A stretch of 61,868 nt of DNA, filler included, from Dugesia japonica (taxonomy: Eukaryota): assembly GCA_001938525.1 (NCBI GenBank). It is 6 parts of 6 records of this genome, joined end to end, with 100 filler letters (N's around TTAATTAATTAA, not from the genome) between each part and the next. Parts side by side here need not be neighbours in the genome. Positions count along the whole stretch, not along the records: positions 1 to 11,256 come from MQRL01497790.1; 5 more parts are not named here. One strand, 5' to 3'. A program made the translations under genes and the position numbers. Shown in pieces: positions 1 to 26,099 of the stretch; position 1 is the stretch's first letter, and each line of letters opens with the position of its first letter. Below the pieces are notes generated by a model. It was not told where the DNA came from. It ran no database searches and worked only from the letters and a program-made list of their open reading frames with translations.

Positions 1-244
1 ATCATTGTGACGAAAGTTTCAACTTGGGTTTTCCACACCCTCTCCTGATTCTGGGTGGCGGCCATCTCCGCTTTAAAAGTCAGACATTTCCGCTTATAGC
101 GTTTTACCTTAGCTTCGGCCGTGGTGGTTTCCGCTTTCCATCGCCTCTTCGCTAGTTTATAAAGATNCCAGGTAATCTCCTTGTCATCACTATCTTCTCG
201 TAATTTCTTAGTTGGGACCTGGAACCTATTCAAAGACGAATGCA
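1..244 (-). CDS. Cassette ORF3 copy A (partial), coiled-coil protein
   Basis: After acceptor TTTCAG|TG reads xHSSLNRFQVPTKKLREDSDDKEITWxLYKLAKRRWKAE..., homologous to ORF3 of copies B and C; open to the window edge. Confidence 0.7.
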
Positions 245-480
245 CTGAAATATAAACAGGTTTAATATGCTACACTTTACTCAATGTTACTAATACTAGA
301 AAAGTGGGGTAGTCTTGACTACCACCATTACTAAATGAAATGGATCAACCCAACCTCTTTACAAAATAAAACAAAAATATACTAAAATTGAATTATTATC
401 ACCAGTAAACTGCCTCACAAGAAAAGTTGAAAATAACCACAAACGAAACAATTATTTATTTCTAACAAATAACCAAAAGT

Positions 481-837
481 TTAAGAGGGGTTATTACTAG
501 TGTCGGTATTGGGGACGGTATTTTCAACGTCAGCTACCCCATTCGGCTCCCGGACTCCCCAGAGAAGATTAGTGATGAACGTTTGTATCGCAGGAGCTGG
601 GGGAGTAGTGGTAGGTTGATAGGAAAAGGAGGTTGCTAAAGTGCGATCCGGGCCTGTCCACGCCTGGTATCGCTGGCGTTCTCCGAAATCGTTAATGCGG
701 CCAACGATTGATTCGACCGGCGGTAAATTTGCCCGGTTTACTAAGATTCCGGTATCCTGATGATGCGGGTTATGATATCGTCGTAGAGTTAGCCGACGCG
801 TTCGCCTATCGACGAAACGTATCCATATAGAGTCCAT
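481..837 (-). CDS. Cassette ORF2 copy A, 118 aa unknown protein
   Basis: Intact ORF, clearly homologous to 18546-18893 (DRRTRR, NLPPVE, WTGPDRTL, NLLWG.REP); acceptor TTTAG 3 nt before ATG. Confidence 0.75.
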   Translation of the reverse strand: MDSIWIRFVDRRTRRLTLRRYHNPHHQDTGILVNRANLPPVESIVGRINDFGERQRYQAWTGPDRTLATSFSYQPTTTPPAPAIQTFITNLLWGVREPNGVADVENTVPNTDTSNNPS

Positions 838-986
838 TCGCTAAATAAGGGGAATATAGTTTAATTTATGATTGATAACTTTCTTTGAGTTAGTTAAATA
901 TTAATGGAAAGGAACAACAGATATAAACAGCTCAGTCAAAGATCTATTCAGAACAATTAACAATAATGGACAGATTTTATCCCTGC

Positions 987-1181
987 TTAGTAAAATGCAT
1001 TTTCTGCGTCTAGATCTACCAGACCCACTAATGGGAACATTTCCGTGAAACAGCACAAATCCGTTTCATCTGGATGTTCAATGCGTCCTTTTTTGAGGAT
1101 ATGGGCGAGTAATTGTCTTAAACGAGTGGTTTGCCGCCGTCTTTTTATCCATTGGAGAGTACGCCTCAACTCTGCTGGCAT
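987..1181 (-). CDS. Cassette ORF1 copy A, 64 aa basic-helix protein
   Basis: Motif QLLAH...G.(I/V)EHPDETDL.C..E conserved in all four copies. Confidence 0.75.
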   Translation of the reverse strand: MPAELRRTLQWIKRRRQTTRLRQLLAHILKKGRIEHPDETDLCCFTEMFPLVGLVDLDAENAFY

Positions 1182-2586
1182 GACGGAATGAAAGAAAAAT
1201 CGAATTTTAATCGTAATTTAAGGATTAGATCCTCGAGGAGAATTTGTTATATTGCAAATAGATTGCACCGCCTCTAATTCACGTTATTCATTTTGTGGAT
1301 ATTTCAAAGTGAGGTCCTACTGTTACTGTTAAGCTTATCCCGGTCTTACAGCGTTCGGGCAGAAAATTATTAAGTTTAGATTCAACGTTTAATGACGGGC
1401 GCTAAAATTGTTGAGATGGTTGGTCGAGATGGTCATAATTCGTTATATCATTATTATCAATAAAATTTATAAAAAACACCAATTTTATTAATTATAATAT
1501 TAATTAATCCTTGCTAAATTTATGGTTATTAAAACCCGCGCGTGCTATTGTTGCCCAGGAATGTCTTTTCTCTAGGTGATTGAGTCAGTGTATCGTGAGT
1601 AGGTATGCGACACACCCTCTTTTTATGTGGTTATCGTAAGAAATCACCAATTGAGTTTATGTGCTGACTCAAGCGATTGTAATATGTTGTAAAATGTTTT
1701 CTCTGCTTTCATAATGATCGGGTAGCAGCAACGTGGATATTTCTAAAGGCCATCTCATACATTTGTGGAATTTATTTATTAAATAATTATCTGCTATCTG
1801 CGAACCTAAAATTTGTTGTTAGGGGAGCAAAAGATTTTTCTGCGGAATGTTTCCATGGAATTTTCATTCAAAGCTAGCATCGGAATCAGACAGAGTTAAA
1901 GTCAACAACGGCAATTATATTTAGCAACTATTCGATTGCACACATCGTTAGTAGGAATATTGGTAGTTGATTGAGGTGTTTACTGATTCTATTTACACAT
2001 TGTAAATAACACGGATTTACCCTTTATTTCAATGTCAATTCTGGTGATTTCATCGTAATAAATTTTGTTATTCATTTTATTAATTTTTAAAAAAAAATAA
2101 ATCAAGTATAACCGACATTTCTATTCAAATTTTATACATTATATATTTATTAGTTATAAAGAGTAAAAAAGAAAATCTACTAGGTTTAGCATAATAATTT
2201 ATTAACATAACTATTATTCATATACGATGTTAATTAAAATAACATATTACTTGGTGTTGTAGGATTAAAGACTTTCTTCAACGGGTTTTTGGTGGACAAG
2301 ATAGATTAAGTTGACTAGTTCTGATTATTGGTCCGGTATTTCGTTCTTTTCGTCTTCTTGAAACAAGTAATATTAACCGCAACACAAATGAAATGTTAAT
2401 TTACTCTCGATTTCCAATATAGACAAAGTAGTTGCTGCGCGATAACCACGTAATACAACGAATTTCTTGGTACTTCCTTGACTTGTATAAGTTATAATCA
2501 CAAAATTTCAGAGTTACTTTTTGAGTATATAAGTAGGCACAACTTGTGATGATTAGACTGAATAATTCTGCTAAAATCAGGGGTCC

Positions 2587-2790
2587 TTTTATAGGATTTC
2601 TGAGACATCCTGACTTGTTATTGATTTGTTGATTATTTTTGGATCAACGTTTTTCTGTTGTCATTGGTTCTCATGCCATTTTTCTACGATTTTCTATGAA
2701 TTTTGGTGCCATGATTGGCAGCTATTTTTATCCGGACACATGGCATTTGTGTCTTTGTTATATTTTTATTTTTAAATATCTGATTGGTCT
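2587..2790 (-). promoter_or_regulatory. Putative promoter of cassette copy A (TATAAAA plus upstream CCAAT boxes)
   Basis: TATAAAA on minus strand at 2587-2593 in context AAATCAGGGG..TTTATA shared with copy B (7054-7059); several ATTGG boxes upstream, also in copies B and D. Confidence 0.5.
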
Positions 2791-3834
2791 AATCTTGAGG
2801 ACCCTGCAGCAACCCTTTGGAAGGTGGTATGTTTTTCGTTTTTGTAATTTCAGTTGCCCCTTGATGTTCTCTCTTCATTTTTTCTTGTCCAGATTCTTTC
2901 CGACTTCCCTGATCGAAGTTATCTGGATAAAACAGATTTTTAACTAATTTTGCTTCTTTTTTTATTTTAAAATTAATTAATTTTCTTTTGTTAATTAATT
3001 ATTTTCCATAACGTTTTTCTATGTTGTTTATTATTAAATTAATAATTGTTCTTAATTTCCAAAAGTAAGTTGCTTTTATTTTACTCGGTTCATCATATTC
3101 ACCTTTGGTTTTATTTCGTTTCCTTCTCCTGCTGCTTTCATTGCTTCATTTTCCATTATTATTGACTATAATGGTCCTGCCATTCTTGTTTGCTGATTTA
3201 TTTTTCAACCTTAATCTTGTTTAGCGGGTGTTTCACCCCAACAAATATACTGAATAGACTACTTCAAATTAAAGAAGTAATCCTGCTTATTTTCTTTTAA
3301 AATATTTATTGTGCACTGTTAGCAGCTGCTATGTTTTCTCCAGTTTGCATCTAAATATTTATCAATAAATTATATGTTATGAGTAAATCCAGTGAAAATT
3401 AATTCTACCACAAAATAGTAATATTAAAACATTTAATTGTCTTACTTATTTTCTTTTTTTATTTGAAATTTCTTCCATTATTAATACATTTAACTTTTAT
3501 GAAACTCTTTAAGAAATTTATAAAACTTTTCATAAAATTTTTATGTTGGATAATTAAACATCCTAACATGTTTTGGGATTCTACTTAAGTTATGAGCAGA
3601 AAAATTTTAAAAAATAGAAAAAAAACAGCCCTCAGGGGTACCCCTTGAAGAATTTACGCAAGTTCCCTTATTAGGTTCTCGGTGCGAAGCGGTTGACTTC
3701 CATCACATATTTGGAGTTCACACTTGCACACCTTTAGTTCGGGTTCAACATTTCCCATTTTAATAAAGGCTCTTGAAATATTAACCATAAATTAGCAAGA
3801 AAATTTCTTTTACACAAATATGCTTATGTTACAT

Positions 3835-4123
3835 TTAATTTAAAGCTTCAGGGTCAAGCCACTGGGTCGGCTCGTCATTTAAAAAGTCGATTGCGGCCTC
3901 ATCATCATTGTGGTTTCATCTTATCCACGTTTCCGTGATCTGTTTAACTTGCTTAGCTATTTCATCCTGTTTTTTATTGATCAGCTCTAACTTCTTGATT
4001 AACACTGTGTTAGATGTTGACACAGAGAGCGTTTGCAACGTTTAGAGTAATGTCTCTCGACTAGTAGTTTTTGTATTAGCTCATGGCAACATTCGAGGGA
4101 GTTTGGCAATCTGATTCGTGGCA
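3835..4123 (-). pseudogene. Cassette ORF4 copy B (premature stop)
   Basis: TTTTAG|TG CCA CGA ATC...; C-terminus AAIDFLNDEPTQWLDPEALN matches copies C and D. Confidence 0.65.
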
Positions 4124-4226
4124 CTAAAAATAAACATGATAAAAACGAGAACCCGTTACGCAAACAATATGTAGTTAATAACAAGAGTTTGATAATACAA
4201 TTTATTAAAGCAACCAAAAGGAGCAG

Positions 4227-4582
4227 TTAATTTTTTGTCTGAGTCGACTTATCAATCATCAGTAGCTCCAGAGAAATACGCTTACGCAGTTCTAATAATT
4301 AAGTCACCAGTTTATTCTCACAGTCATGGAGGGACCGGATAACGTTAGCAAAAGACTCAAGTTGGCGCTTCCAGATGCTCTCTTACGAATGGAATGCTTC
4401 TGCTTCTACTCTATGTTCTCGGCAACGAGCCTCGTAACGCCCTACTTTGGTCTGGGCGAAAACTACTTCGGCTTCCCATCGGCGTTTTGACAGTTTATAG
4501 ACATCCCAAAACATAGCGATGTTTTCGCTATCCTCTCGCACCTTTTTGGTGAGAGCAACGTAACTGTCTCGTGAATTGTTCA
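4227..4582 (-). pseudogene. Cassette ORF3 copy B (two in-frame stops)
   Basis: WDVYKLSKRRWEAEV...IRSLHDCENKLV...LMIDKSTQTKN, collinear with copy C. Confidence 0.7.
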
Positions 4583-4758
4583 CTAAAAGAAGCTACTAAT
4601 TAATGTTTGCTAGAATTCGCAACGCTAACAGTTTAATATTATTATTCCAAAACCCAACTTAAATGTTTAACGAAATACCAAACACCAAAACGTTGAAGTC
4701 AGATGATAAAAAAATTAACGTAAATACTATTTATTGTCAAGCAAATATTGATGCACGA

Positions 4759-5138
4759 TCAATTCTCGTAACCTCTAATGCTCCACATATAGTCGTTAAT
4801 AGTTTCTCTTATTTCCGAAGGAGTAGGAGAATGAGCGGAAGGATTATGGATTGAAGACGGCTCAACCTGCCAATCTCGTTTAGTATGCTGAAAACCATTC
4901 TCGCCCGTTGTAGTTGTCGTGGTAGCGAAATACGTCACGCGATTACAGTTAGGACCTGTACAATCATAAAAATCCTGCCGCTCAGTTGCGTCCCAATGTA
5001 CTTTGTTATTAGCGTCTTCAACAGATAAATTTCGATCGTTCTGCAAACACACTGGCATTTCTATTAAAAGATTAGTGTACCGTTTAAAAACCATCTGGTT
5101 AGTACGGCGATCCAAGATTAACTCCCATTTAAATTTCA
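4759..5138 (-). CDS. Cassette ORF2 copy B (divergent)
   Basis: Same position as other ORF2; shares W..I.DRRT, TGP..R and 'INDYMWSIR' similar to 'INNLLWGIR'; begins at acceptor TTCAG|TG. Confidence 0.6.
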
Positions 5139-5260
5139 CTGAATACAAGAGAAAAATTATTTTAGATAGAGGAAGTCAGTTAGAATTTCAAACAAAAATA
5201 TTAATTCAATAATTTTTTAATACAGATAATAATTTATTTATAAGCAATAACAAAGCATAG

Positions 5261-5446
5261 TTATAAGTATTGATCTAAATGGACTATAAGTTTTGACGGG
5301 AATATTTCTAAAAAACACTGCAGGTCCGTCTCATCCGGATGTTCAACTTTCCCTAACGACAATATATGGGCCAATAATTGCTTTCGACGTGCCTTCTGTC
5401 TTTCTTTGCGGATCTGTCGGACAGTTTCGTACAAAATTCTGGACAT
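5261..5446 (-). CDS. Cassette ORF1 copy B
   Basis: QLLAHILSLGKVEHPDETDLQCFLEIFP; acceptor TTTAG 4 nt before ATG. Confidence 0.7.
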   Translation of the reverse strand: MSRILYETVRQIRKERQKARRKQLLAHILSLGKVEHPDETDLQCFLEIFPSKLIVHLDQYL

Positions 5447-7860
5447 TTTCCTAAAGTAAGTTTATGAAAAATAAACATAATTGAAATATCATTTGATTTA
5501 TTTTCGGCCTATTTAAAACAAGAGTAAACGAAAATCGATATACCTCAGAATATTAATGAAACTCAAAAACACGAATACCCATCATTATGCAATAATAATA
5601 TTCCTAATGATAACCTTAATAAATTAATATTAATAATGATTAGGCCAGTAATAATATTTTTATCATTAATATTAACAATAATAGTCCTGATAATTGCATA
5701 AATAATAATCGTAAATAAATTATAATAATAATAATAGCAGAACTCGGAAAATTGTTAAAATTTAAAACTGATTAAAACAGAAAGTACTGTTTATTTGACT
5801 ATTAGTGATTGGCGCTATAATTGTAATACTGTCGAAGCGAATATTAGTCAAAACATCGAGACCAAAAGGTCGGTGTAGTGACATCATCGTTATTCAGCCA
5901 AGCGGTGACAAATTTGAGTCCCAGAACTGGATCAACCCAGGAGGTTAAACTATCTAGCAAAACTGATTATCAATGAAGAAAATACTGAATTTGTAAAAGT
6001 TTATAATTGTGCAAGTAAGGTGTTAGTCACCATAGAACTAAAAACCCAAAAAAAGTATTAATTTTAATAATCAATAATTAATTAGCAGTCAGTGTTCGTC
6101 TTAAAATCAACACTAAGGAAATGGTGGTGGAGTATAAAGATTTTACACACTCACTAAATTTTCTACAAATCAGAGTTATTACTATCAGCTACATCGGGAC
6201 ATTAATAACTCGATTAGTTGTAAGACAAACTGTTAATCTGATAATGGATGAGTAATAGGTGTGCGGTCTGCAGTGCAACATGTATACATAAAAAATCGTC
6301 TCCTACAGTTAGTTTGTAGGTTCTTATCAGTCATCGAAAATAGTGTGTAAATTGCTCATTTCCATCATGCCTCATGGTCTGGAATGCATAGCTCGTTTTC
6401 AATGCCATTTCCTAATGCCGATTGAAAATTAATTTTTTCTCATGGATTACAATATATTCAAAGGGAAAGGGTTACGAAGTTGACAAGAATTGAACGAAAA
6501 TTATTAGATCGGAGATAGTCACATTTCACTCTTACGGTAAATTTTTGTTAATTATCAAATAAAGTGTTATACTGCCATTTAGTGAAAGAGAGTACTATGA
6601 TAGTGAAGGAAGCAAATTCTAAACGTCTATCAACAAGGACTTATTAACATTCCACACGTATTCTCAATCGAAAACCTGGACAACTGGAAATTAATGAAGT
6701 AGTGGAATTTCTTAATGATTATGCTAATTTAATTGGATCTGGTTTACCAAACATGTGAATTGTTTCTATGAAATAAAATTTGTGTTCTTATACTACTCAT
6801 TATCATTTTTTACTGGCATGCAACAGATAATCATAGATAAGGTTTGAAAAAGTTTTTATTAAATATTAACACATTATATGGTTAAAATAACAACAAATAA
6901 CATTACTTTTCAAAATTAGGACGGTAAAAGTTGATCCAATTAATTCGTTTATCCAGAATTGCGCACTTCCAAAGAGATTTTCCACGTAATAACCGAGTTG
7001 TAGTATTAACAAATGTAGATTTTTTGGGGGTAAATCAACTGAAATCAGGGGGGTTTATACTTCCTCGTCGACACACCGAATTTTCTACCATTGACCGGTT
7101 ATTTTTATTTTTGGTTAACCGTTTCTGATTGGCAATAACTCCAAAATTTTCAGACTTTCTACGATTTTCTATCATTTTGTTGGTGCCTATTTTTAGAGCA
7201 CTTGCTGATTTTCAGGGCTTTGTTTTCCGTTTATCTTATGGCTTCTCATATGCCTGATCTTTAGACCCTTCTGATGATGGCAATGTTTTCTGTCACCAAA
7301 TTCAATTCCTCCACGTTATTATACCTCTAAACTTTCTTTCCTGGACTTCCTCATATTTTCCTGAGAGAAGATAATTTCCTTTAACTGATTTTCACACAAT
7401 TAAATTCCTTTTTTCAACAAAATTAATTAATTTCTTCCATTATTTTAATTATAATTTTAATAATAATTTTCTTGTGTTTTGATTATAAATTATAATTCTT
7501 GTAATTGGATTTGATTAATATTAATATTTTATTATTTCTGTTACTTCTTTATTCGTTCTGTATTTTCTTCTGGTCATCTGTTGATTATTTATTACAATTT
7601 ATTATCAAGATGACAATTATTATTGATTAATCTCCACGTTTCTTATTGCTTCTTTTTACTACTCAATGTTTGGGTCCCTAGTCATATTTCCTTCTTTGAT
7701 CAGGTGTTTCACCCCAACACATGCACTATTTTTATTAACTTCAAACTTTTACATCTGTTAAAGATACTTCTTTCCTTTTCCCACGAGAAATGCCGATTTT
7801 ATTGTAGCCTCACAGTAAATATGCAATAAAATTTAGCAACTTTTTTTCAACCACATTTGT

Positions 7861-8045
7861 TGGGGTTCCACCTGAGTCGGGTGGTAATAAAAATGAGGCT
7901 GGGGAAAAAACAGCCCTCAAGGGAACCCGTTCAAGAATTAAACCTACCGCCCCTAGGGTAGGTATTCAGTTTATGGTGGTTGACCTCTCCCTTAATGGGA
8001 GGTGCACACCCATAAACCTTTGTATTCGGGTTCAATAGTTTTCCC
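7861..8045. ncRNA. Conserved multi-stem structured terminal element (also ~3574-3756 and ~17375-17557)
   Basis: Stems GGGTTCC/GGAACCC, GGCTG/CAGCC, ACCTACC/GGTAGGT, GTTTATGG/CCATAAAC; stem sequences differ between copies but pairing is retained. Confidence 0.55.
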
Positions 8046-8102
8046 TTAACTTAAACAAAATTTTAAATCAAATAATTCTGGGAACATTTATTAATACAAC
8101 AT

Positions 8103-8500
8103 TTATAGCTCATTTAATACGCTAGGGTCTAGCCATTAATCTGGGTCGTCTATTGTAAAATTGAAGGCGGCGACATCGTCGTCATTGTTCCAATGAATCC
8201 AGGCTGGATTCCGAATCTGTCTGGAGAGGTCAGCTATGTACTGCTTTAAAAAGTCTATTTTTCGTAACAGTAACTGCCTGGTATCGGCCTCTAGGGCTTT
8301 GGTTTGGATTGCAAAGTCGTTTTGCTTACGGACTACCAAATCCAATTTTTTTATGAGTTGATTCCTTTGGTCAAGGTGCTTAAGGAAAGCTTGGTCTGCT
8401 TTGCGTTTTAAGTGTCGCTCTAATAACAGGTGGCGTAAGATGCGGTGGCGTAAGACGCGGTGGCACCTCCTCAAACTAGTAGGAAACGCGATTCGAGACA
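8103..8500 (-). CDS. Cassette ORF4 copy C, basic N-terminus, coiled coil, acidic tail (late premature stop at 8136)
   Basis: ORF track 8136-8501; reading through the TAA gives WLDPSVLNEL as in copy D (QWLDPGVPDEL); starts at TTTAG|TG. Confidence 0.7.
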
Positions 8501-8619
8501 CTAAAGAAAAAGTATAATTAAATTAATGAGTACCTAAGCTACGACGCGGGAAAACAAATAACAGAGAAATTTCATACAATTAAATATTTTATCGTTTCAA
8601 TCAATAATGCAACATCAAG

Positions 8620-8979
8620 CTATGAGAGGCTCGTCTGAGTACTTTTGTCGATCATTAGCGGTTCGAGGGGGATTTTCTCCCGGAGAATCAAAATGTCGTT
8701 AACCAGTTTATTTTCTCGGTCATGGCTGGACCGGATAATCTCTGAAAAAGATTCCACTTGTTTTTTCCAAGTGCGCTCCTGTAAATGGGAGGCCTCCGCT
8801 TCCTTTCTAAAAAGAACACATTTTTTCTTATAACGGAGGACTTTACTATTCGCAGTGGCCACTTCTGCCTCCCAACGTCGTTTGGCGAGTCGGTAGAGGT
8901 CCCACATCATTTCGCGGGCCTCGCTAGTGTCTCGGATTTTCTTGGTTGGAGCTGGGGGGGCGATTTAACGATGAATGCA
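8620..8979 (-). CDS. Cassette ORF3 copy C, coiled coil with C-terminal DKSTQT
   Basis: ORF track 8620-8910; 5' part from acceptor TTTAG|TG at 8979 has a +1 shift in a C7 run. Confidence 0.7.
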
Positions 8980-9182
8980 CTAAACGAAAATATCATAAGA
9001 ATTATTTCTCTTCATCGACTTGCTGATTAATCCTCTTATATTTGTTCAACTCTACTCAAAGCATGAAAACACAGAATAACAATATTAAAGGTAATCTTCC
9101 CAAGGGGCTAAAGAGTATATTAACACTACTTAAGACACTTATTTATTCAAAGAAACACAAATTTTATGATTATGAATAACAT

Positions 9183-9528
9183 CAAGAGTCGGGAGTGGTA
9201 GTATCAGGGGAACTGTATTTTCCACATCCGCCACCCCGGACGGTTCCCTAACACCCCAGAGCATATTAGCTATAAAGGCTTGAACTACTGGTGGAGGAGC
9301 TGGAGGTTGGTACCGGAATGGAGTGGCGTGGCTACACTCAGGACCATTTCACTGGCGATAGTTTAGTCGCTCTCCAAAGCCCTGAATACGAGCAACAGCT
9401 GCTTCGACGGGAGGTAGATTTGATCGGTCTACCAGGATCCCGGCATCTCGAGTGTAGGGATTGTGGTGCCGTCGGAAAATTATTCGACGGGTTCGCCTAT
9501 CCATGACTCGCTCCCATATTGATTCCAT
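9183..9528 (-). pseudogene. Cassette ORF2 copy C (internal frameshift)
   Basis: MESIWERVMDRRTRR..., downstream LWGVREPSGVADVEN is in another frame. Confidence 0.65.
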
Positions 9529-9667
9529 TTCTAAGAATGACGAAATATTAGTAAACTCAATTAACACATTATACAATTACAATAAACACTTAAATGTATG
9601 ATTAACACGCTACGCGGAATTTTATTCAAAAGATCATTTTAACAGATAACTATCACCGAAGTAAATG

Positions 9668-9850
9668 TCATCCCTCATCCCGATCTACGTTCCTTTCCAA
9701 GGGGAATATCTCGGTGAGACAGCACAGGTCTGTCTCGTCTGGGTGTTCAATTGTTCCCTTTGTGAGAAAGTGGGCTAGTAACTGTTTGAACCGGCTAGTC
9801 TGGCGTTGCTTTTTTATCCAACCCAATGCCTGATCTAATTCTGTTGGCAT
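9668..9850 (-). CDS. Cassette ORF1 copy C
   Basis: QLLAHFLTKGTIEHPDETDLCCLTEIFP. Confidence 0.7.
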   Translation of the reverse strand: MPTELDQALGWIKKQRQTSRFKQLLAHFLTKGTIEHPDETDLCCLTEIFPLERNVDRDEG

Positions 9851-11300
9851 GAGCTAAAGAAGAAAATGGTTAACTGTTGTTTTTTCCTTTTGACTTAATT
9901 CCCCGGATCAACTTATTGTAGCAACTTGTTATTTGATGGGGGTCATATCATGGAAGGGTAGAAATTAAAGGAGGATCGTTACCTAGGATCATCGCAACCT
10001 GGTTATGAGGGTAATGTTAATTCTAGCATAAAATGATAGTTAATATCACCGCAAAAGTACGTAACAAAATAATTTTCTTTTCATAATAATATTCGTGATA
10101 AAGATACCTGTTATGGCCCATGGAAGCACGACCATATCGTTGCATCTGATAGTATCACCAATCCTTATTCGGAATGGTAACCAGCCCAATTTTTAATTCA
10201 ATTCTCCGATTACTCTAACAAGTTGACGTCTATTCCCCCCAAAACGCTATTATTACTATTAATGGCCAAATTCCTGTAACACTGGTTATTATAAACGTTA
10301 TAACATTAATTTTCATCAATAAAAGCAACAATAATGATAATATAAGCACAAAAAGGAAAATTAAGATTATTTTCTAGTTTTTCTAATTTTGAATTTCTGC
10401 CTGTTATAGTTGCCTAGTGATATTGTTTAAACGGGGTATATTGGTCTCACTCGTGTGAGTGTGTGCTTGCCAGTTTAATTTCGTATATGTGTGTATAGGC
10501 AGGTAATCTAACTAAAGTAGATAATATCAACTAGTTACATCACTACTAATGATAGGAATCTCGACTGATCAAACTTAGTGATGTTGGGGGATTTTCGCAT
10601 GTCAAAAAACAAAATTTCTTTATAATGTACATACTCAACGAGAAAATTTTTTTCACTCCTATAGAGTCGGGTCACAAAAATTTGGCTGCCACTAAAGATC
10701 ATGGAGATTTTAATAGATCAGAGCGTATTAAGGTTATTTTTGGAAGTTATTTGATTGCCATCTCTCCATGATTTCGTTGGAATCAACTGCAGTGAGTTGT
10801 AATTTATTAATTTTCTTAAATAAATAGTTGGAAATGGTTTTCTTAATTGATTATTTTATTATTATACTTCAGTCTAGGCGTGAATCGTAAAATTATGGAA
10901 AGAGATTAAACCCAGTTTAAATTCTGGAATCTAGCTGTTAGGGTGTGATTAATCCAGCAACATACATTTTAGAATTACCATATTTACGTATATCATATTA
11001 TTTGTGGATATAAAAAGAAAAGCGATTACTTTCTTAATAATCAATAATTTCAAGGGATTCTTAGTTTGAACGGGATTAATGTCACGATGATTCATGATTT
11101 ATTAGTTATCGTTAAGAAATAATAATGTACGTTTTTATAGCATGAACAAATTTTATTAAGATAAATGATATTCATCGTTAAAAATTATACCACTTTTACA
11201 CAATTAAAATAATAATTTACTTTTTAATATTCCTGTAAAATTTTCTGCAACAGGTTNNNNNNNNNNNNNNNNNNNNNNNNNNNNNNNNNNNNNNNNNNNN

Positions 11301-11389: not shown

Positions 11390-13400
11390 ACATGTCACAT
11401 TTAAATTATTATGAAGCTGATATACCAATGAATTTAAAAGATATCCCGAAATTTGAAAAAGAAAATTATAGATTATCAATAAATGTCTTATTTTGGAACC
11501 CGCATTGAGGACGATGATGTGGTCATGACACACTATAATCTTGTCATAATACATCGATCGAAAGCTGTTTACAGCGAGAAGATTAATTTATTACGGTTGA
11601 AGGATAATGATGATTTCCATTACACAGCACTATTGAATTTAAACCATGTAATAAATAGAGATCGAACGAATTGTGTAAGAATACAAACATTACGATGTCT
11701 AAATTGTCTGAATGGATTTCACTTGAAGGACAAATTTGTAAAACAGAAGCTAATTTGTGGTTGAATTCAAACGGGCACTACACACTGTATTATGCCGACT
11801 GAAACCAANTTAAAATTCCAAGATTTCAACAAGGCAGTTACTCTCCTTTTTGTATTATATGCTGATTTTGAATTAGTTTTATCTCTCAGATGAAAAATAT
11901 TTCCAGAAATATCTACATGTTTCGGCTGGTCGGTTGTAGGTAAATAATTTTACTAATAAAGTGAAATACAGCAAGTACTTTGGAAATGACTGCTATTTTG
12001 AGCTTTTAAAGTCAGTTAAAGAATAAAATAATAATTTACTAATCCCTATTACAAAAAACATGGTAATAAGCAAATTATAATGTCCCCTCACATGATTGTT
12101 TAGACCAGCCCGAAATTGTTATTTATTTAAACATAAGCTCATAAACCCAGTTCGAGATCACAACCATTTTACAGGAAAGTATAAAGTAGCTGCGTGTAAT
12201 TTTTGTAATTTATCAAGAAGAGTTCATATGCAACTACCGGTTGCGTTTTCTAATTTGAGAGTGGATGATGAGTATATTTATATTTATATTTTATTGCTAC
12301 ATACTCGAATATGGACTCAGCAGATTCCAAAATGAAATATTAGTTGTATTTCTATGACTTTTGAAAAAGTCCTATGTTTAATAGTGCACCAAAAAAAATC
12401 ATCTACTATTAAATTTATTGAGAGTTATCAGTTTATTTTACAGTAAAAGAAGTTCAAGACGGTAGGATAACGATATCAAAGGGAATATTTCCTTATAATT
12501 ACGCAACTAGTTTGCAAGTTTTGGTTGAAATAGTTGACATGCCACAAAAGTTGGAGGAAGTAAATGAAGAAGATTAAAAAAAGGTGATCAAGATGTGGAT
12601 GCTGGCAAGTTGTTATATGTTAGTTTATTTGAAGTTGGATCTGCTTTTGTTAGCGGATTTTTTTCAATAGTTAAGAATTAAATCATTAAATTTAGAGTCT
12701 TTCAATTTTTTCGGAATACCATGGATGAGTTTGGCATCATCATTGATGTCATTAGATGAGCAAATTGAACTGTTGAAAGATAATGACATGTACACATGTT
12801 TTAAAGGTGGAATAAGAAGCGGGCTTACATTCATCAATTAACACCATGTGGCATCTAATGACAATACTGATTTATTGTATATAGATAATCACAATCTATA
12901 TGGTTGGTCATTAAGTCAGAAATTTCTCTATGCAGATTGTGAGTTGGTCTATAATTTATTGGAAACAACGCTGGAAGAATGTAAGACAGGTGACCTCAAC
13001 TTGTTACCAAATTAATACTCATTGGTGGTAGACATGGTTATTTTGGAGGAAATTTACGATTGCCTAAACGATTTCCCAGTAGCAGTGAAACATCATAGTT
13101 CATCAGGATCAAAAATTGATAAATTGTTGTTAACACATTACTCAAAAAATAACTATATTATTTATCGGAGGCTGTTGTAAATGTATATTCAGTTGGGTGA
13201 ACAGATGATAAAAATGCACAGAGGAGTTCAGTTTAGAGAAGGAAATATGTTTAAAAAGTATATAGATATTTATACATAATGGATGTCAAAAGCAAAATCG
13301 TAATTGGAGAAAAATTATTATATATTATTCATTAATAGCTTAAAAGGAAAATCTGTGGAAAATTTGAAGAAAAGAATTAATGTGCGCTTGTGCATTATAA
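11390..13400 (+). pseudogene. Polinton/Maverick protein-primed DNA polymerase B relic
   Basis: YADFE, PVRDHNHFTGKYKVAACNFCNL, GGIRSGLTF, LLYIDNHNLYGW, NSLxGKSVEN; many stops and frameshifts; homologous to 28400-30350. Confidence 0.85.
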
Positions 13401-13709
13401 AGTAATAAGAAACCATCAGTTATATAGCATAAAAAATAATAAAGTTGTACTCAGTAATAACGACGATAACAGAGTGTGGATTCGCAAGAATACATCGATT
13501 TCATTTTGGCACTACACATAAGGTCATATATAAGACCAATTGTAGTATTTTTCTTACAGAACAATTACGACAACAGATAAATCGAAGCTGGTATATTTTT
13601 ATATTATCGTTAAAATTACAATGATTAAAAATTTGTTTTAATATTATTTAGAAATTGTGTAATTTTGATTTATAATAAATATTTAAAAGAAGTCTGATTT
13701 GAAAGTAAC

Positions 13710-16500
13710 TTAACTGGCGACCACGGCAACAACGAAAATTAATTTTAGAAGCCTTGTCTAAGAAGAATTTGGAACTTATTAATTTTAATATTAAAAAATA
13801 TGATTGTAATGATTCTTCATAAGCCTCAGCATGGCTGAAAGAAATCAACGAATAGCTCATTGTGAATGATTTACGCTTGATGGGAATTATCGATGAAGAT
13901 ATTTACGCAATACGGAGAAAGAGTTATTCAAACGTGTTAAAAGGAGACTGAAGTAGTAATGAGAGACGGCCTCAAAACCAGCCGTCAATTAATTTTAAAA
14001 CCAATAATAATGTAAGATATGAAAAACCAAGAACAGAAATTTCAACGTATCAGAGAAAGTTCAACGAAAGGATGTCACAACCGGTAATTACAGAGAACAG
14101 AACGTATGGTTTAAGTAGGAAACTGGCAGTTTCAAGATGTCTTTTTAACAGATATAGAGGATTACCTGAACTACAAGAAGAACGATTACGGGAAGGACAA
14201 TGTTATTGTAGCAGAGAACATGAACACATGCGTTATCAATGTCTAATAAAATATAATTGTTTGATATACGGGAAAGCTGGACACAATTTCCGGCAATACT
14301 ATCTTGTGAAAGTTTGATCTAATAAGGGAAATATTAAAATTCTATGCATCCAGAGGAACAAGAGGTACAAATTGACAAAGATGAAATCTTTGAAATGCAT
14401 GATATTATCAAAGAAAAAAACCAGAACAACTCCGTTGCATACATTTTGTCAGTGGAGTTAACTTAAGAAGAGATAACTTGAATCGAAATAATCAAGACAG
14501 AAGATAGATGTATGAAAAAGAAGACGGAAGAGCGTGAAGAAGAGTAGACATGAATGGAGTAAAATTGGAAATGTTGTGGGATTCGGGAACATTGATTACA
14601 ATTATGAGCGAAGAGTACTGGTTGAAGGTAGGAAAACCAATCTTGTTATGTTGCAATGTCATGTTAAATGGGGTATTTTTGAGCAGTGAAGAGAGGCCGT
14701 TATGATTTGTTGAAGTGAGCGTTAAATGGAATAATACAGTGAGAGTTATTAAAATCATAATTTTTAAAAAGACGATCAAAGTTTATGGATGGCATAGATG
14801 CAGTGAAAATTTTCGGAATAAAACTGACAGAAGTTAATAACATTGAAACAGAATGTTTTGGAAGAAACCACTCAAACGATGATAGAAAGAATTACGCATT
14901 AAATGTCTTCTAAAAAACAAATAACAAAGATCTAAATTATCTAATTTTGAAGTTTGTTGAAATATTCATGGCGATTAATTTTGATATAAAACATACAAAA
15001 CAAATAATATACGAAAAATAAGTATTTGGAGATCCAATTGTTCAACATCCCCGGAGACAACCGATGCACTTGAAAAAGAATATTGACGAAATGATACTGC
15101 GTTTAATAAGTATTGGGATAATTAGCATATGTAAAAGTTGGAAATGGAAAAAAAGATGGGTTGGTAAGAATGTGTGTCGATTATTGACAACTGAATATGA
15201 TCACTGAAAAGTTTCATTTCCGATGCCAGACATCCAGTTATTATTGGCTTGCTTAGCAGGTGCAAAAATACTTTGTTCAATTGATCTAGGACAAGCTTTC
15301 TATCAAGTAGAACTATCAGAAAGCTTGAGAGATGTTGCGGTGTTTAGTACAAAAGAGGGTCAATTTAGGCTCAATTGGATTCTATTTGGGTTAGCAACGG
15401 CAACGTTTCAAAAGTTGATGCATGATTTGATGGCAGGAGTGATTTTTAAAGGTCTCATCGTATATCTAGATGATATATTAGAGTTTGAAAGAACGGTCGA
15501 AGATCATAATGATATTTTGAAAGAATTTTTCAACAAAATAAGAGAATCAGGATTGAGAATAAATCCAGAAAAATGTAACTTTTACCAAAAACAACTGGAC
15601 CTTTTGGGACACACAATAAGTACATGAGTAAAAACAAACGAAACTAAGATTTAGGAAATAAAAAATGCCGAAGAACCAAAATGTTCATCTAAACTCAGAT
15701 CTTTTTGCTTAACGAATTACTACAGGCGTTTTATCAAGGATTACGCTAGAATTGCAAGACCTTTGAAGCTATTTTAAAATGGGAAAAAAGTTTGATGTGG
15801 ACAGAAGCATGCAGAAAACGTTTTGAATGACAAGTTATGTAATGCACCAATCTTAGATTACCCAAGAGAAAATAGAATGTTTATCCTAGATACTGATGTA
15901 AGTTTCGGAGCTATCGGTGCAGTGTTGAGCCAAAGAACAGAAGATAGTGAAGAGGTGGTGATAGCTTATGAATCCAGGAACTTTACTGCTTATGAAAAGG
16001 GATACTGCGTTACAAGAAAAGAATTGCTGGCATTACATGAATATGTGGTACATTTCAAGCAATATCTATATGGAAAGAAATTCTTAGCAAGAAAAGATCA
16101 CAAAGCACTGATATTTATGAATAACAAAAAAACCGATAAGCCCACGATTTCAGACGTGGATAGCAAATCTGGGAGAATATGATTTTGAGTTAAAATATTG
16201 AAAGGGGTTAAAACGCAACAATGCTGATGGATTATCACGAATAAATGAGAGTTTATGCTCACAATACTAAACAGTACATTTGGATTCCATGGAAGAAAAA
16301 TCAAGAGTAAAATATATTAACAACAGAATGAAAACATTATAAAAAAAATTCGGAATGCACAGAAAGATGATTCAATAATACAAAGAATAAATGAAATAAT
16401 TCAAAACGAAGTACGGCTAGTAGAAAAGATCATTCAGGGAAATTATGTGGATCAACTTGATCGCGAATTGAAAATTGATTATGGATTGACGAAATAAAAT
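13710..16500 (+). mobile_element. Decayed Ty3/Gypsy LTR retrotransposon (PBS, gag, PR, RT, RNase H)
   Basis: PBS-like TGGCGACC at ~13715; LWDSGT protease; IDLGQAFYQV and YLDDIL RT (15223-15627); FILDTDVS and KELLAL RNase H (15823-16182). Confidence 0.9.
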
Positions 16501-17371: not shown

Positions 17372-17614
17372 TGTTGGGGTTTCACCTGAGTTGGATGGTA
17401 AGTAAATTATGGCTGTTTTTAAAACAGCCCTCAGGGAAACTCTTTCAAGAATTTACCCTGACGTTCTTGGGTCAGGTATTCAGCATATGATGGTTGATCT
17501 CTCTCTTAATGGGAGGTGCATGCCCATAAGCCTTTTATTCGGGTTCACTATTTTCCTTTAACTTACACAAAAGATTTAAACCAATGATACTCGAGACATT
17601 TATTAAAATGACAT

Positions 17615-17957
17615 TTATAATTCGTCTGGTACGCCAGGGTCTAACCACTGGTCTGGGTCAGTCATTAAAAAATGGAAGGCAGCGACAACTGGCGGGAAAG
17701 GTCTGCTATGTATTGTTTTAGGAATTCTATTTTCATTTGTAATAGTTGTTTTGTTTCTGCTTCCAGGGCCTTGGTTTGGGATGCTAGGTCACTCTGTTTC
17801 TTCACTATCAAATCCAGCTTTTTTATTAGTTGGTCTCACTGGGCTAAATGTTTAAGAAGGGCCGGATCGGTCTTACACTTTAAATGTCATTCCAGTAACA
17901 GACGGCGCAGCGTACGATGACATCGGCGAAGACTGTTAGGGAAATTGATATGAGGCA
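17615..17957 (-). pseudogene. Cassette ORF4 copy D
   Basis: TTTCAG|TG CCT CAT ATC AAT TTC CCT..., internal TGA, ends DPDQWLDPGVPDEL. Confidence 0.65.
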
Positions 17958-18075
17958 CTGAAAGAAATTAGATTAGTATATGGTAACTTGACACAAGAAT
18001 TTAAGTAAACATTAAGATAAACTCGTAAGACAGATTGAATGACAAATTTATTTACAACGAAAAATTATTGCAAGT

Positions 18076-18368
18076 TAGTTCCGGTGAGTTTAGTTGACCT
18101 TCTCGATCATCAGTGGTTTGAGAGGCATTCTTTCTCGTAGGAACAATATGTCCTCAACCAGTTTATTTTTTCGGTCATGACTAGACCGCATAACCTCCGC
18201 AAATGACTCAACTTGTCTCTTTCAAGTTCGCTCCTGCAAGTGAGAGGCTACGGCCATCTTTTTAAAAGTGATGCACTTTTTCTTATAGCGAGTCACCTTA
18301 CAGTTGGCAGCAGCTTTCTGTGCCTCCCATCGGCGTTTTTCCAGTCGATATAGGTCCCGGTGAATGCA
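18076..18368 (-). pseudogene. Cassette ORF3 copy D (deleted, acceptor mutated)
   Basis: DLYRLEKRRWEAQ...MRSSHDRKNKLVEDILFLRE. Confidence 0.6.
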
Positions 18369-18545
18369 TTAAAAGAATTTTAAAACCAATCAAACATTAC
18401 AAAGTGAACCGCTATCTCTATGACTGATATTGTCATAGTACATTTACAACTTGCGCTTAAAGTTAATTTCAAAATCAAAAGAAAATATGATGAAACTAAT
18501 CTGAAGACAACAAGATTTTTACGACCAAAACAAAAAAATAAACTC

Positions 18546-18893
18546 CTAATGAGTAGTTGCTGAGTCAGTTGCGGGTGTAGAATTCTCTGAATCCTTGCTA
18601 CCTGATGGTTCTCTTATCCCCCAGAGTAAATTATTGATAAGTGCCTGTACGGCAGGTGCTGGAGCTGCTGGTTGATACTGGAAGGTTGTGACAAGTGTCC
18701 GATCAGGCCCTGTCCAATTATGATGGCTACGCCGCTCCCTGAAATCCTGTATTCGAGCTATGATGGCTTCCACTGGGGGCAGATTAGACCTATCGGCCAA
18801 GATCCCCGCGTCATGATTGTTGGGGTTAAGATGTCGTCGGAAAATCACGCGACGAGTCCGTCGGTCTATTATACGTTCCCATATAGATTCCAT
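18546..18893 (-). CDS. Cassette ORF2 copy D, 115 aa
   Basis: Intact, homologous to 481-837. Confidence 0.75.
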   Translation of the reverse strand: MESIWERIIDRRTRRVIFRRHLNPNNHDAGILADRSNLPPVEAIIARIQDFRERRSHHNWTGPDRTLVTTFQYQPAAPAPAVQALINNLLWGIREPSGSKDSENSTPATDSATTH

Positions 18894-19014
18894 TATCTAA
18901 TTAAAGAATGAGAATAATTATTACAAATAAAAAAAAATTATATAAGTAGCTATAAAAACGCCAACAAGGTGGTACATATATTTTATTTCATGATAGTGAT
19001 GCCAACAAAAGAAA

Positions 19015-19197
19015 TCAATCCGCGTCTAAGTCGACTCCTGCCATTAAGGTGAACATTTCTGCAAAGCAACACAGATCCGTTTCGTCTGGATGCTCAATTG
19101 TCCCTTTAGTCAATAGATGAGCTATTAACTGTCTTAACCGGGCAGTTTGACGTTGCTGTTTTATCCATCGAAGGATACGGCGCAATTCCGCTGGCAT
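19015..19197 (-). CDS. Cassette ORF1 copy D
   Basis: QLIAHLLTKGTIEHPDETDLCCFAEMF. Confidence 0.72.
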   Translation of the reverse strand: MPAELRRILRWIKQQRQTARLRQLIAHLLTKGTIEHPDETDLCCFAEMFTLMAGVDLDAD

Positions 19198-21420
19198 AAA
19201 CTAAAGGATTAAACTGTCAATGCTAGTAATTAAATTCAGGGTTGAACCAAAACAAAATTTCTTGTTACCGCACGAGGACATTTACCATAATAACAAGTTT
19301 AATAATCCCGGGATAATGTTGGTGATGATCATAATAATAAAATTAATAATAGTTGTAGTACGTATATTAATAACCAACAGTTCTAATATATAAGAATAAC
19401 AGTCTTAGAACGTATAATAATAGCCACTGGCACCACCAGTAATGACAGAATCCTTTACTAAAATGATTAAGATAACATCCGGCAAGAACTACACTAATGC
19501 AAGCCATATTAATAGTAATTGTAGTAAGGATAGTAGTATTACTGATAACTGTAACCATGATAACAATACTAATAATCATAGTGCCAATAGCAGCAATAAT
19601 AGTAATCACACCATCAATACCAATAACAATTATCACCATCATGTCAGTAACACTAATATCATGAATACCAATAATGATGATGCTAATAACGGCAGTAATA
19701 ATAATATTAATAATACTAATAATAACAATATTAATAATAGTAGTGATAATATTAATATTAATAATAATAACGATAATAGTGACAACAACATTTATGATGT
19801 TAAGGATACTATATTAGTATAATCAATTTTAGATTATCTTTTGCTCAAATTTGTTAAAATTGGGAGTTGCGCTGAATTTNGTATTTTCCCTCGTAACAAT
19901 AAAATAATATGTTTTTTGTAAACTTTAATGATTTGACCGAAGTTCGCAAATTAATTAATTGTGGGAAGTGGTTGCTTAACAGCCAAAAAATTTGTAATGG
20001 CTAGTATTACACATTATAGTTAAAGGATAGTATGTGTGTATGCAAAAAGGCATTATTGTACATCGATCGATTCACCCTGGTTACTATGGTGAAATTAACC
20101 ACGACGGCAACTTAAGTCACTATAATGAGTAACTAGTTGCTTATTTTTATAGGGAATTTGGGGGTAATTACTCACGCTCATAGCTGGATTAACTCCAACT
20201 AACTCGTTTAATTTGTAGATCCTGTGGTGGGCATATAATTCTTAGATAAACCTATTTGACACAAAAAAATTTAAAATAAAACTCATTTCACTGTAAATAA
20301 AAGGTTTTTTTTTTAATTAATAATTAGAGCTAAAATTCCATTCAATTTATTTTAATTTATTATAACATAACAGAACACTTCCTATCAAGTTTTTGATAAG
20401 ATTTCCGCAACGGGGAATAACAGACGAATGAACTATTTTTCCTTCTTTTAATTGATAACGAAAGTCACAACTTTTGCTGTTTTAGGACAATTGAAAATCA
20501 GCAAGGTTTAATGAATAAAATTACTTTGATGCGCGATAACTGATCACGTCGATTTCTGTTTGTTGATATCGTAACAAAATTCTGCTGAGGGTTTTTCTTT
20601 TGTGAATTACCGAATTGTATATTAGTTTTACGAGAGATTTAGTAGTGTTTTTGTGATGATCTTCTGCTTATTTCATGTTTCCTTAATATATGACTTTTCT
20701 TCGCACCCCAACTTTGTTCATATTTGTTGGTTATTTATAACCGGAATTTTCGGCTTCCTATTGGTTCTAGTGCCAATTTACTAAATTTTTTAGAGTTTTA
20801 GAGTTCAATTGGCGGTTATTTTTAAAACTTCATGTAATCGATTGTGCTTTATCTTTTTTTTATTTTCAGGTTCCTTATTGGCCCAATCTTGAAATTCCTG
20901 CAGCAACCCTCTGGATGGTGGTAAGATTTTCTTCTTAACAAATGTTTCTTACTATTTTCTTTTTGGATTTTCTTACCCGAACTCTTTCTGATTTTCCCAA
21001 GCGAAGTTATTATTTAGATTTAATTTCCATTCAAATTTAATTAATAATTCATCCTTAATTAATTCTTCTTTAAATTTGCTTCTCCTTGTATTTAATATTA
21101 TTTAATATTCTATTCTAATTATTGATTCGATGCAGGTTACATTTGTCCATTAAAGATCTTTTTCCCTTCTATTTCGGTAGATGTTCATTTTTAGTTCTAT
21201 TGTCGGTTGCCCTGAGGTTTTATATTACTTCTTCCAACGCTATTTGTTTGCAATGAGTNNNNNNNNNNNNNNNNNNNNNNNNNNNNNNNNNNNNNNNNNN
21301 NNNNNNNNNNNNNNNNNNNNNNNNNNNNNNNNNNNNNNNNNNNNNNNNNNNNNNNNNNNNNNNNNNNNNNNNNNNNNNNNNNNNNNNNNNNNNNNNNNNN
21401 NNNNNNNNNNNNNNNNNNNN

Positions 21421-22249: not shown

Positions 22250-22628
22250 TTTTATTGTTGTTGATGATATGTATTAAGAGGCAAATAAAGAAAAAGATTT
22301 CAATAATTTATTCATAAAAATATCGAGACGTCGTAATGTGACTGTTATATTTATTACTCAAAATCTATTTCGTCAAAGAACCCACAATTTATACGTGCAA
22401 AATTTGGTTCTATTAAAACGTCCTAGAGATCAGACTGTTGTTAATTTTCTAGCAAGACAAGCATATTCAAATAATAGACAATTTTTTATTGAATCATTTC
22501 AAGATGCAACAGAAAAACCACATGGATATCTATTTCTTGACTTTACACAACAATGTACAGATGATTATAGAGTAAGAACAGATATATTCAACCCTAATGG
22601 TATCACAGTATATAAACAAAACGGGTAA
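22250..22628 (+). pseudogene. Polinton A32/FtsK-like packaging ATPase, C-terminal part
   Basis: Walker B-like VDDM, SRRRNVTVIFITQNLF, KPHGYLFLDF. Confidence 0.85.
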
Positions 22629-22647
22629 TTTTTCATAATATAACAAA

Positions 22648-23400
22648 ATGACAAAATTAAAGAAATTTTTAGTTGATCAAGTAACTGATGGTCTTATTAC
22701 AATAATTGTAATTTTAAAAATGGACATCCAGATAATTTACAAACGGATTTGGGTAACTAATTTTATAATTCCAAGGTAAGAGAACTTATAAATCATCTAT
22801 CCATAAATCATTATAGTGTATTCTCACAATATAAAGCTGCACAAGTAGAGAGATTTAATCGTACATTTAGAGATGCTTTGAAAAAGTACTTTGTACATTT
22901 TGGTAATAAGACTTGGATAAATGTTTTACTGAAACTTATTCATAGTTATAATCATTCTGGTCATAATGGATTAAATGGGGCAAGACCGGTTTATGTATGT
23001 ACATACAATCTATTTAAGTTATGGCTATCACGTTAACATTCAAAAGCAAATAAAATATCAAAGTATAAAGTTGGTGATCATGTGAGAATCTCGAAAATTT
23101 CAGCTTCACCATTTGTCAAGATTTCAATAGTAATTGGAGTGATGAAGTCTTTCAAATAACAAAACTAAATACTTAACCAAATCCGGTCATGTATGTTATT
23201 AAAGATTATGAAGATAATATTGTGCAAGGAAAATTCTATGACCAACAATTACAAGTCATTTAATCACCAGAGATACAAAAAATAGAAACAATAATCAAAT
23301 CAAAGGGATCAGGAAAGAATAAACAATACTATGTAAAGTGGCATGAATACGAAAAACCAAGTTGGATATTAGCATCACAAATAGTCAATCCGGAAGAAAA
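22648..23400 (+). pseudogene. Polinton retroviral-like integrase with C-terminal chromodomain
   Basis: LQTDLG, KAAQVERFNRT, YKVGDHVRISK, YYVKWHEY...SW. Confidence 0.85.
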
Positions 23401-23406
23401 TGTAGA

Positions 23407-24435: not shown

Positions 24436-24870
24436 TGAATCCTGATATTTTTTTCAATGTATAGTACTGGTCAAGCAGGTGGAAAATTACTTTACTTTCT
24501 TGGAAAACAGTATGGATCCGGTTGGTTACGAACAATAGTTAGATTTGTTTTGCCGATTCTTAAAAGTATAATTTTTTTTGGTATGAAAAAAGCTCAGGAT
24601 GTACTAGCTTATGACGGAAAAAATACTACCAACATTGAAATCTAATGCAAAAGCTGCGCTTGGAAATGTTATGTCATCGTTACCTAGCCGAGTAACCAGT
24701 ATGATTTCAAACATATTACCACAAAGTATAACTAACAAAATACCATATGAAATAACTAATATGCTATCAAATTAAGTTAAAACACTACAAAATAGTAGAA
24801 AACGTAAGAAATTTCATGGATTACGTATAAAAAAACGAATGAGAGGCCATGGAACAATATTTGAAAAATG
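24435..24870 (+). pseudogene. Polinton core/PZ-like small basic protein
   Basis: GQAGG, KQYGSGWLRTIVRFVLPILK amphipathic segment, basic tail; lies between penton and major capsid genes. Confidence 0.7.
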
Positions 24871-26050: not shown

Positions 26051-26099
26051 ATAATATGTTGTTTAATTGGTACATGCTATGAAGTAAGTGTTATTATAT

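Follow-up and report, generated by a model that had tools for sequence, protein, structure and literature searches.

What kind of genetic unit sets four small open reading frames (ORFs) behind one candidate promoter, and repeats this arrangement along one strand of an animal genome? The question is raised by positions 7858 to 11221 of a 61,868-nucleotide (nt) stretch of AT-rich animal DNA from Dugesia japonica (GenBank assembly GCA_001938525.1; hereafter the window), where an initial annotation had proposed a virus-like transcription unit with one leader and four alternative terminal exons. The locus is one of four diverged copies, A to D, of a unit of about 4.15 kb. From comparison of the copies, a transcription unit in which one promoter serves four terminal exons by alternative splicing and polyadenylation appears well supported, and we judge this splicing model, taken as a whole, to be likely. 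The unit is itself probably a long terminal repeat (LTR). For the two together, a solo LTR of a giant Gypsy-type retrotransposon carrying a one-leader, four-ORF splicing cassette, our confidence is more moderate, and this is the reading towards which we lean.

Four copies and their reading frames

All four copies lie on the minus strand of the 61.9-kb window with ORF1 to ORF4 in identical order (Table 1), which bears out the multi-copy ORF unit described initially. The ORFs are real genes under selection. Purifying selection is seen in 19 of 19 pairwise ORF comparisons (differences at replacement sites, pN, 0.14–0.49; at synonymous sites, pS, 0.70–0.98, near saturation), a set that excludes ORF1 of copy B, which is intact and 50% identical to ORF1 of copy C. 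Because synonymous sites are saturated while replacement sites have been kept, the copies are taken to be old, separate lineages whose ORFs were selected before the current insertions decayed. Every copy is now damaged somewhere: in copy C, the one initially flagged, ORF1 is intact, ORF2 and ORF4 have in-frame stops, and ORF3 has a frameshift in a run of C. The ORF2 protein has 115–126 amino acids (aa) in copies A, B, and D, where it is intact, and ORF3 and ORF4 show no detectable paralogy with each other.

As judged by sequence comparison, the four ORFs belong to no named family in the libraries searched: Pfam (cut-off E 0.01), PHROGs, PDB sequences, and ESM Atlas gave nothing significant for ORF1–4, and a word search with ORF2 and alignments of ORF3 and ORF1 found 0 matches among 7, 163, and 5 candidates, respectively. 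The ORF2 alignment, run with HMMER against 1.84 billion representatives, returned two matches. One (P0001, 94 aa, E 2.6e-15), an unnamed ORF2-like protein on a 512-nt contig, is taken as a true relative and is the sole homolog; the other (P0002) was dropped as a short motif inside an unrelated repeat protein. The predicted folds of ORF1 and ORF2 are uninformative: the AlphaFold model of ORF1 (pLDDT 75) is a helix-loop-helix with no Foldseek match in PDB, and that of ORF2 (pLDDT 58) has no BFVD match at E < 0.001. Rfam gave no match in window positions 1–22000, and no tRNA was found.

ORF3 carries a more specific signature. In copies B and C, between which synonymous sites are saturated, it ends in MIDKSTQT, a predicted docking motif of the LC8/DYNLL type beside a likely coiled coil, the latter suggested by composition and by weak, sub-threshold Pfam matches. 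Across all six frames, the window has just two matches to the pattern [D/S]Kx[T/V/I]Q[T/V], both at the end of ORF3, against an expectation of 0.003 per four-ORF set.

The ends of the unit are sharp, a feature that the initial annotation did not mention. The termini are TG..CA, with the 5' terminus TGTTGGGG (longer form TGTTGGGGTGAAACACC) at 3243 in copy A and 7719 in copy B, and with a 3' terminus that ends in CCCCAACA at 7858 in copy C and 17372 in copy D (longer form ..GGTG(A/G)AACCCCAACA at both) and is decayed at 3571 in copy B. This terminus pattern was derived from these same ends, and only the absence of further matches is informative. Copy B is bordered by CATG on both sides in an ungapped alignment of its decayed end (the one copy that allows the check). 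The last 70 nt are predicted to form a stem-loop on the minus strand in copies C and D (z −2.75 and −2.80, with 0 of 200 shuffles as good; plus-strand z −1.29 and −2.63); none is predicted in the decayed copy B.

Diverged relatives with the same terminus are numerous in public sequencing runs. The strand bias of the 3' terminus differed between three of these runs (X13, X14, and X17), and no orientation is therefore drawn from it. A contig of run X8 links the 5' terminus of one unit to the 3' terminus of another through only 18 AT-rich letters (compare 7719/7857 here), so head-to-tail neighbouring units occur elsewhere too. Insertion may favour AT microsatellites or existing copies of the unit; copy D lies between (AAT)n tracts.

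Signals for one leader and four terminal exons

What appears to be the strongest argument in the DNA for one-leader splicing is a split start codon. Neither ORF3 nor ORF4 has an ATG after its acceptor, a point overlooked initially. At six of the seven ORF3 and ORF4 starts, and at ORF2 of copy B, the junction reads AG|TG (the bar marks the splice site) and the conserved frame begins at exon base +3; the remaining start is ORF3 of copy D, whose acceptor is lost. No in-frame ATG lies upstream of AG|TG at the six starts checked, and ORF4 of copy C contains no in-frame ATG across 120 codons. Because all four donors end in A and these exons begin with TG, joining leader to exon would yield A|TG, forming the start codon of ORF3, ORF4, and ORF2 of copy B. 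With the ATG of ORF3 and ORF4 built only by the splice, splicing would be required for both proteins, which would come only from correctly spliced RNA. The start of ORF2 varies among copies between AG|NNN ATG and, in copy B, AG|TG.

Acceptor and polyadenylation (poly(A)) signals recur at most ORFs. A pyrimidine tract with YAG at most 6 nt from the start is present at 13 of 15 ORF starts when at least 8 of 14 pyrimidines are asked for (chance 0.058 per start) and at 10 of 15 under a stricter cut of at least 10 of 14 (chance 0.019 per start). The initial annotation had placed a tract and AG directly before each ORF; this holds for the 13 starts but not for ORF1 of copy A and ORF3 of copy D, where the acceptor is absent. 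Its acceptor-to-ATG distance of 2–4 nt in ORF1 and ORF2 was measured again in the same range, and its statement that the ORFs are mostly followed by AATAAA agrees with the presence of this hexamer within −20 to +60 nt of the stop in 10 of 14 ORFs (background 0.197, p = 4e-5; five stop anchors are a few bases off, well within that interval). ORF3 of copy C has GATAAA only and no AATAAA.

The promoter signals reported for copies A, B, and D were found, with a TATAWA box in copies A and B but in copy D only a TATA-like sequence (TATATTAA near 20689, chosen by spacing). The spacing of the CCAAT boxes is kept between A and D, the last CCAAT stands 73–74 nt from the TATA-type box in A, B, and D, and the predicted promoter lies about 650 nt inside one unit end. 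Copy C is without a visible promoter, which would lie in or past the gap (a run of N from 11257).

The donor sequence AA|GTAA is present at all four last exon bases given initially, but its position is not as comparable between copies as had been claimed, at 342, 152, and 164 nt past the TATA in A, B, and D. Aligned in register, the donor region of copy C resembles that of A, at a score equalled or passed by 5 of 300 shuffles, and less clearly that of B (20 of 300). From 25 nt past the TATA to the donor there is no ATG over 318 nt in A, 128 nt in B, and 140 nt in D (shuffle p 0.003, 0.11, and 0.16); the joint shuffle p of 6e-5 is driven by A and applies to donors picked beforehand by eye. The first introns contain 20–32 ATGs. 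The absence of ATG and the varying offsets of ORF1 and ORF2 rule out a coding leader, in line with the non-coding leader proposed initially, except that the leader would supply the A of the ATG for ORF3 and ORF4.

Under the splicing model, one CCAAT/TATA promoter would drive all four small genes, one short leader would be spliced onto any of the four acceptors, and each terminal exon would use its own poly(A) signal. The four small proteins would act as accessory proteins of the parent element.

Some further features of the leader and first introns differ between copies. On the minus strand, a further donor-like sequence, AAA|GTAA, stands at 2518 in copy A (position 2432 is also marked), and a possible 48-nt mini-intron follows the donor in copy D (20477–20524); the leader may comprise more than one exon in some lineages. 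The first introns of D (19300–19800) and B (5590–5740) both contain an (AAT)-like low-complexity stretch, which in D forms a 126-codon, asparagine-rich plus-strand frame and is probably a decayed microsatellite.

Table 1. Positions in the window of the repeat copies, their predicted signals, and the features of copy C
Feature	Copy	Position	Strand	Remarks
Repeat unit	A	1..3243	-	5' terminus 3243; leaves window inside ORF3
Signals	A	CCAAT 2787/2718/2667; TATA 2593; donor 2251; ORF1 1181; ORF2 837-481; ORF3 acceptor 244	-	
Repeat unit	B	3571..7719	-	4149 nt; sole copy showing both ends
Signals	B	CCAAT 7132; TATA 7059; donor 6907; ORF1 5446; ORF2 acceptor 5138; ORF3 4582; ORF4 4123	-	ORF2 acceptor AG|TG
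Repeat unit	C	7858..11256	-	Flagged copy; 5' part and promoter hidden; N run from 11257
Repeat unit	D	17372..21258	-	Flanked by (AAT)n tracts; 5' end within N run
Signals	D	CCAAT 20881/20812/20764; donor 20525; ORF1 19197; ORF2 18893; ORF4 17957	-	ORF3 acceptor lost
Leader exon, 3' end (visible part)	C	11221..11256	-	Donor A|GTAA
Predicted first intron	C	9854..11220	-	1367 nt; unconserved between copies
ORF1 exon	C	9668..9853	-	60 aa, intact; invariant EHPDETDL; predicted helix-loop-helix; AG|CTC ATG
AATAAA after ORF1	C	9621..9626	-	
ORF2 exon	C	9139..9530	-	AG|AA ATG; in-frame stop 9349-9351; AATAAA 9142-9147
ORF3 exon	C	8620..8979	-	About 120 aa, likely coiled coil; starts AG|TG; frameshift near start
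IDKSTQT, predicted LC8/DYNLL-type motif, ORF3 C-terminus	C	8632..8652	-	
IDKSTQT, predicted LC8/DYNLL-type motif, ORF3 C-terminus	B	4236-4256	-	
ORF4 exon	C	8103..8500	-	About 130 aa, likely helical/coiled coil; starts AG|TG; in-frame stop 8136-8138
AATAAA after ORF4	C	8087..8092	-	
Predicted terminal stem-loop	C	7863..7928	-	
3' terminus	C	7858..7877	-	Imperfect inverted match of about 19 bp to 5' terminus of A and B

Identity of the repeat unit

The TG..CA ends, together with the one 4-bp duplication, suggest that the unit is part of an integrase-mobilised retroelement. The features that fit a solo LTR are these ends, the short inverted match between them, the duplication, an internal promoter, a late poly(A) signal (the last AATAAA stands about 230 nt ahead of the 3' end in C and D), and a structured 3' end. 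A promoter near the 5' end with the last poly(A) signal before the 3' end is the layout of U3-R-U5.

The window also contains remnants of other mobile elements. A decayed Gypsy gag-pol occupies 13700–16500 (+), with a sequence like a primer-binding site (PBS), TGGCGACC, near 13714 and with reverse transcriptase and RNase H recognised by Pfam; a second copy, 81% identical, lies on the opposite strand at 40256–41272 (-). A decayed Polinton/Maverick spans 22278–30300 (+), where packaging-ATPase-, integrase-, and capsid-like frames were seen by eye with no Pfam match, and where 29511–29933 gives a weak match to DNA_pol_B_2. A decayed fragment of a Polinton-type DNA polymerase B at 11483–13500 (+), 73–75% identical to 29192–30189, sits past two N runs where the promoter of copy C would be. 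Host sequence is represented on the minus strand by an exon of a Wnt-family gene at 46980–47342 (PF00110, E 1.5e-9) and by a gene at 52183–60646 with a 4.2-kb exon and a beta-rich frame of 1407 aa, large lipid-transfer-like by eye and with no Pfam match. Copies C and D were considered as the paired LTRs of the Gypsy between them, and this was rejected on their 67–75% identity, their saturated synonymous sites, and the Gypsy's own PBS-like site.

Several observations weigh against a solo LTR with a splicing cassette. None of the five visible unit ends has a PBS, polypurine tract (PPT), or gag-pol next to it, and scans of sequence collections for the unit paired around gag-pol gave chance matches only, the three loci L001–L003 from these scans being discarded as such. 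The target-site duplication is 4 bp long and comes from one decayed copy; the neighbouring Gypsy has its own PBS-like sequence and a different LTR end; and the genomic RNA would have to pass four poly(A) sites lying within the LTR, unless the LTR is read in the opposite direction. The donor of copy D is weakly supported, its region being out of register with C (182 of 300 shuffles) and weakly matching A at another place (39 of 300). AG|TG also reads as an in-frame GTG, and the LC8 motif is intact in two of the three copies that reach its position and broken in D.

Among the joints listed in seven public runs, none connects the leader to an acceptor. The initial proposal of one promoter and four mRNAs has the comparative DNA signals on its side but no leader-to-ORF joint among those listed at the RNA level. 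For copy C itself no RNA record was listed, which carries no information about its expression. In three raw RNA runs (X13, X14, and X17), 57, 241, and 69 reads matched, all in part and 0, 4, and 1 of them at 99% or more, and no leader joint appeared under cover that is thin, partial, and from diverged relatives. Four contig sets (X8, X9, X11, and X12), guessed to be RNA, held 506, 413, 211, and 467 related pieces, with no donor-to-acceptor joint among the 12 joints listed. Single contigs instead span ORF1–ORF2 and ORF2–ORF3 unspliced, and others lie within the intron; these contigs may be DNA, pre-mRNA, or read-through. Because the kind of run is uncertain and the joints are the best-supported ones only, these data neither prove nor exclude splicing and lend it no direct support. 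One X9 contig connects 8533 to 11200 via 20 other letters and may represent a shorter relative in which both the donor and the acceptor of ORF4 survive, separated by about 75 nt.

The unspliced contigs and the lack of a leader joint among those listed would suit a reading in which the ORFs are real but are translated from RNAs that are unspliced, start separately, or arise by read-through, ORF3 and ORF4 starting at the in-frame GTG of the AG|TG sites; the excerpted text of PMC11952523 describes unspliced expression of the small ORFs of the MDG1 group, along with an early poly(A) site. Such a reading leaves aside, however, that the tract and YAG are kept even at ORF1 and ORF2, which start with ATG, despite saturated flanks and synonymous sites, and that ORF2 alternates between AG|NNN ATG and AG|TG among copies. 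The ATGs of the first intron would moreover block scanning, and no promoter-like block is conserved between the ORFs. We consider unspliced expression improbable.

Other readings keep the transcription unit, or its genes, and change the element. The same splicing unit could belong to a Ginger1-type cut-and-paste transposon that is non-autonomous and mobilised in trans by an integrase-like transposase; such elements also have TG..CA termini and 4-bp duplications (excerpt of PMC6839031), the unit ends share an inverted match, and no PBS, PPT, or gag-pol of the unit is seen in the window. The inverted match is, however, just about 19 bp long and imperfect, as in LTR ends, and Pfam (E 0.01, ORF1–4) reveals no remnant of a transposase in the four copies. 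The promoter position and the poly(A) signal before the structured 3' end also match the U3-R-U5 layout, and we regard a Ginger1-type element as unlikely, if the least unlikely of the alternatives. The unit could alternatively be a host gene that has alternative last exons and was duplicated in tandem, or else part of some unknown DNA virus or of an element associated with Polintons; the head-to-tail clustering of A, B, and C on one strand, the Polinton remnants nearby, and the lack of homologs in the libraries searched would be in keeping with such an origin. Against either stand the sharp mobile-element ends, the decay in every copy, the many diverged relatives in public runs, and the lack of any viral protein or fold match in the collections compared. 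Polintons have ends in AG... and 6-bp duplications (excerpt of PMC6839031), as opposed to TG..CA and 4 bp here, and none of the Polinton/Maverick genes (pPolB, integrase, and capsid) lies inside the unit, which does not place it among the Polintons. We give the host-gene or viral origin the smallest share of probability.

Possible accessory proteins and known systems

If the unit is a solo LTR with a four-gene cassette, the predicted LC8 motif is a first point at which the action of an accessory protein on the host could be tested. Natural LC8 motifs have the consensus DKSTQTD, bind more strongly when a branched residue stands at −5 (VDKSTQTD, 0.07 uM), and often flank coiled coils (excerpt of PMC3078936), an arrangement that the I-D-K-S-T-Q-T end of ORF3 beside its likely coiled coil resembles; it differs at position +2, which is S or K in ORF3 and D/E in the consensus. 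LC8 functions in dynein transport, binds viral proteins, and is a core subunit of the Drosophila SFiNX complex of PIWI-interacting RNA (piRNA) silencing (excerpt of PMC7919418). The ORF3 coiled coil would dock on host LC8 through IDKSTQT, and LC8 would clamp ORF3 as a dimer or tie it to LC8-dependent transport or silencing complexes. Our literature search turned up no retrotransposon precedent for the motif. That an invertebrate retrotransposon LTR holds a full four-gene spliced and polyadenylated accessory unit, with two splice-built start codons and an LC8-clamped coiled coil that engages dynein transport or piRNA silencing as a host-manipulation factor, is a tentative proposal that we think doubtful in its full form.

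The consequences of the underlying cassette would be broader. Solo LTRs are usually regarded as non-coding promoters; if the cassette is real, every solo LTR of this lineage would be a self-contained gene cassette, and a very abundant repeat family would be a dispersed source of four unannotated proteins. Because the ATG of ORF3 and ORF4 would be present only after splicing, these two would be invisible to ORF callers. The unit would also represent gene regulation in the style of complex retroviruses in an invertebrate retrotransposon.

The virus-likeness claimed initially had been drawn with both the adenovirus major late unit and complex retroviruses. In the former, one promoter, a shared leader, and alternative acceptors and poly(A) sites give rise to monocistronic mRNAs. 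The likeness to adenovirus is one of logic only, since the unit has no adenoviral gene, protein-primed ends, or adenoviral size, and the complex-retrovirus comparison fits better given the TG..CA ends and the 4-bp duplication. The literature searched (excerpts of PMC11410931, PMC13524379, PMC8532177, and bioRxiv 10.64898/2025.12.11.693146) does not describe an LTR that carries four genes in a spliced cassette; Grohme 2018 and Repbase lie outside that scope and may describe the repeat. Mouse mammary tumour virus (MMTV) sag and the complex retroviruses share with the unit an LTR-encoded protein and several accessory proteins per provirus (excerpt of PMC11998498), but MMTV has a single LTR ORF for a membrane superantigen, whereas the unit would encode four soluble proteins with their own acceptors and poly(A) signals and with the donor inside the unit.

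Among Gypsy-type elements, the springer-clade errantiviruses of Drosophila provide a start codon completed at a splice junction, that of env being formed from spliced AU|G (excerpt of bioRxiv 10.1101/2023.08.03.551782). There, AU is joined to one env ORF of the internal region, whereas the leader of the unit would contribute one A, to two or three of the four alternative small ORFs. The MDG1 group (412, Mdg1, Blood, and Stalker), compared here by description, has small selected accessory ORFs, sORF1 and sORF2, and an internal poly(A) site; these two ORFs lie between the LTR and gag, are unspliced, and include one that is membrane fusogen-like (excerpt of PMC11952523). In plants, Retand elements have antisense accessory ORFs near the 3' LTR, as far as the excerpted source describes them. 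In the planarian Burro/GYPSM1 elements, likewise compared by description, the accessory ORFs and domains are described in the internal region and none in the LTR in the excerpted text of PMC6431247; with a total length above 30 kb and an internal region of at most 25 kb, which imply very long LTRs, these elements resemble the unit in their very long terminal repeats, their accessory ORFs, and their AT-rich animal host.

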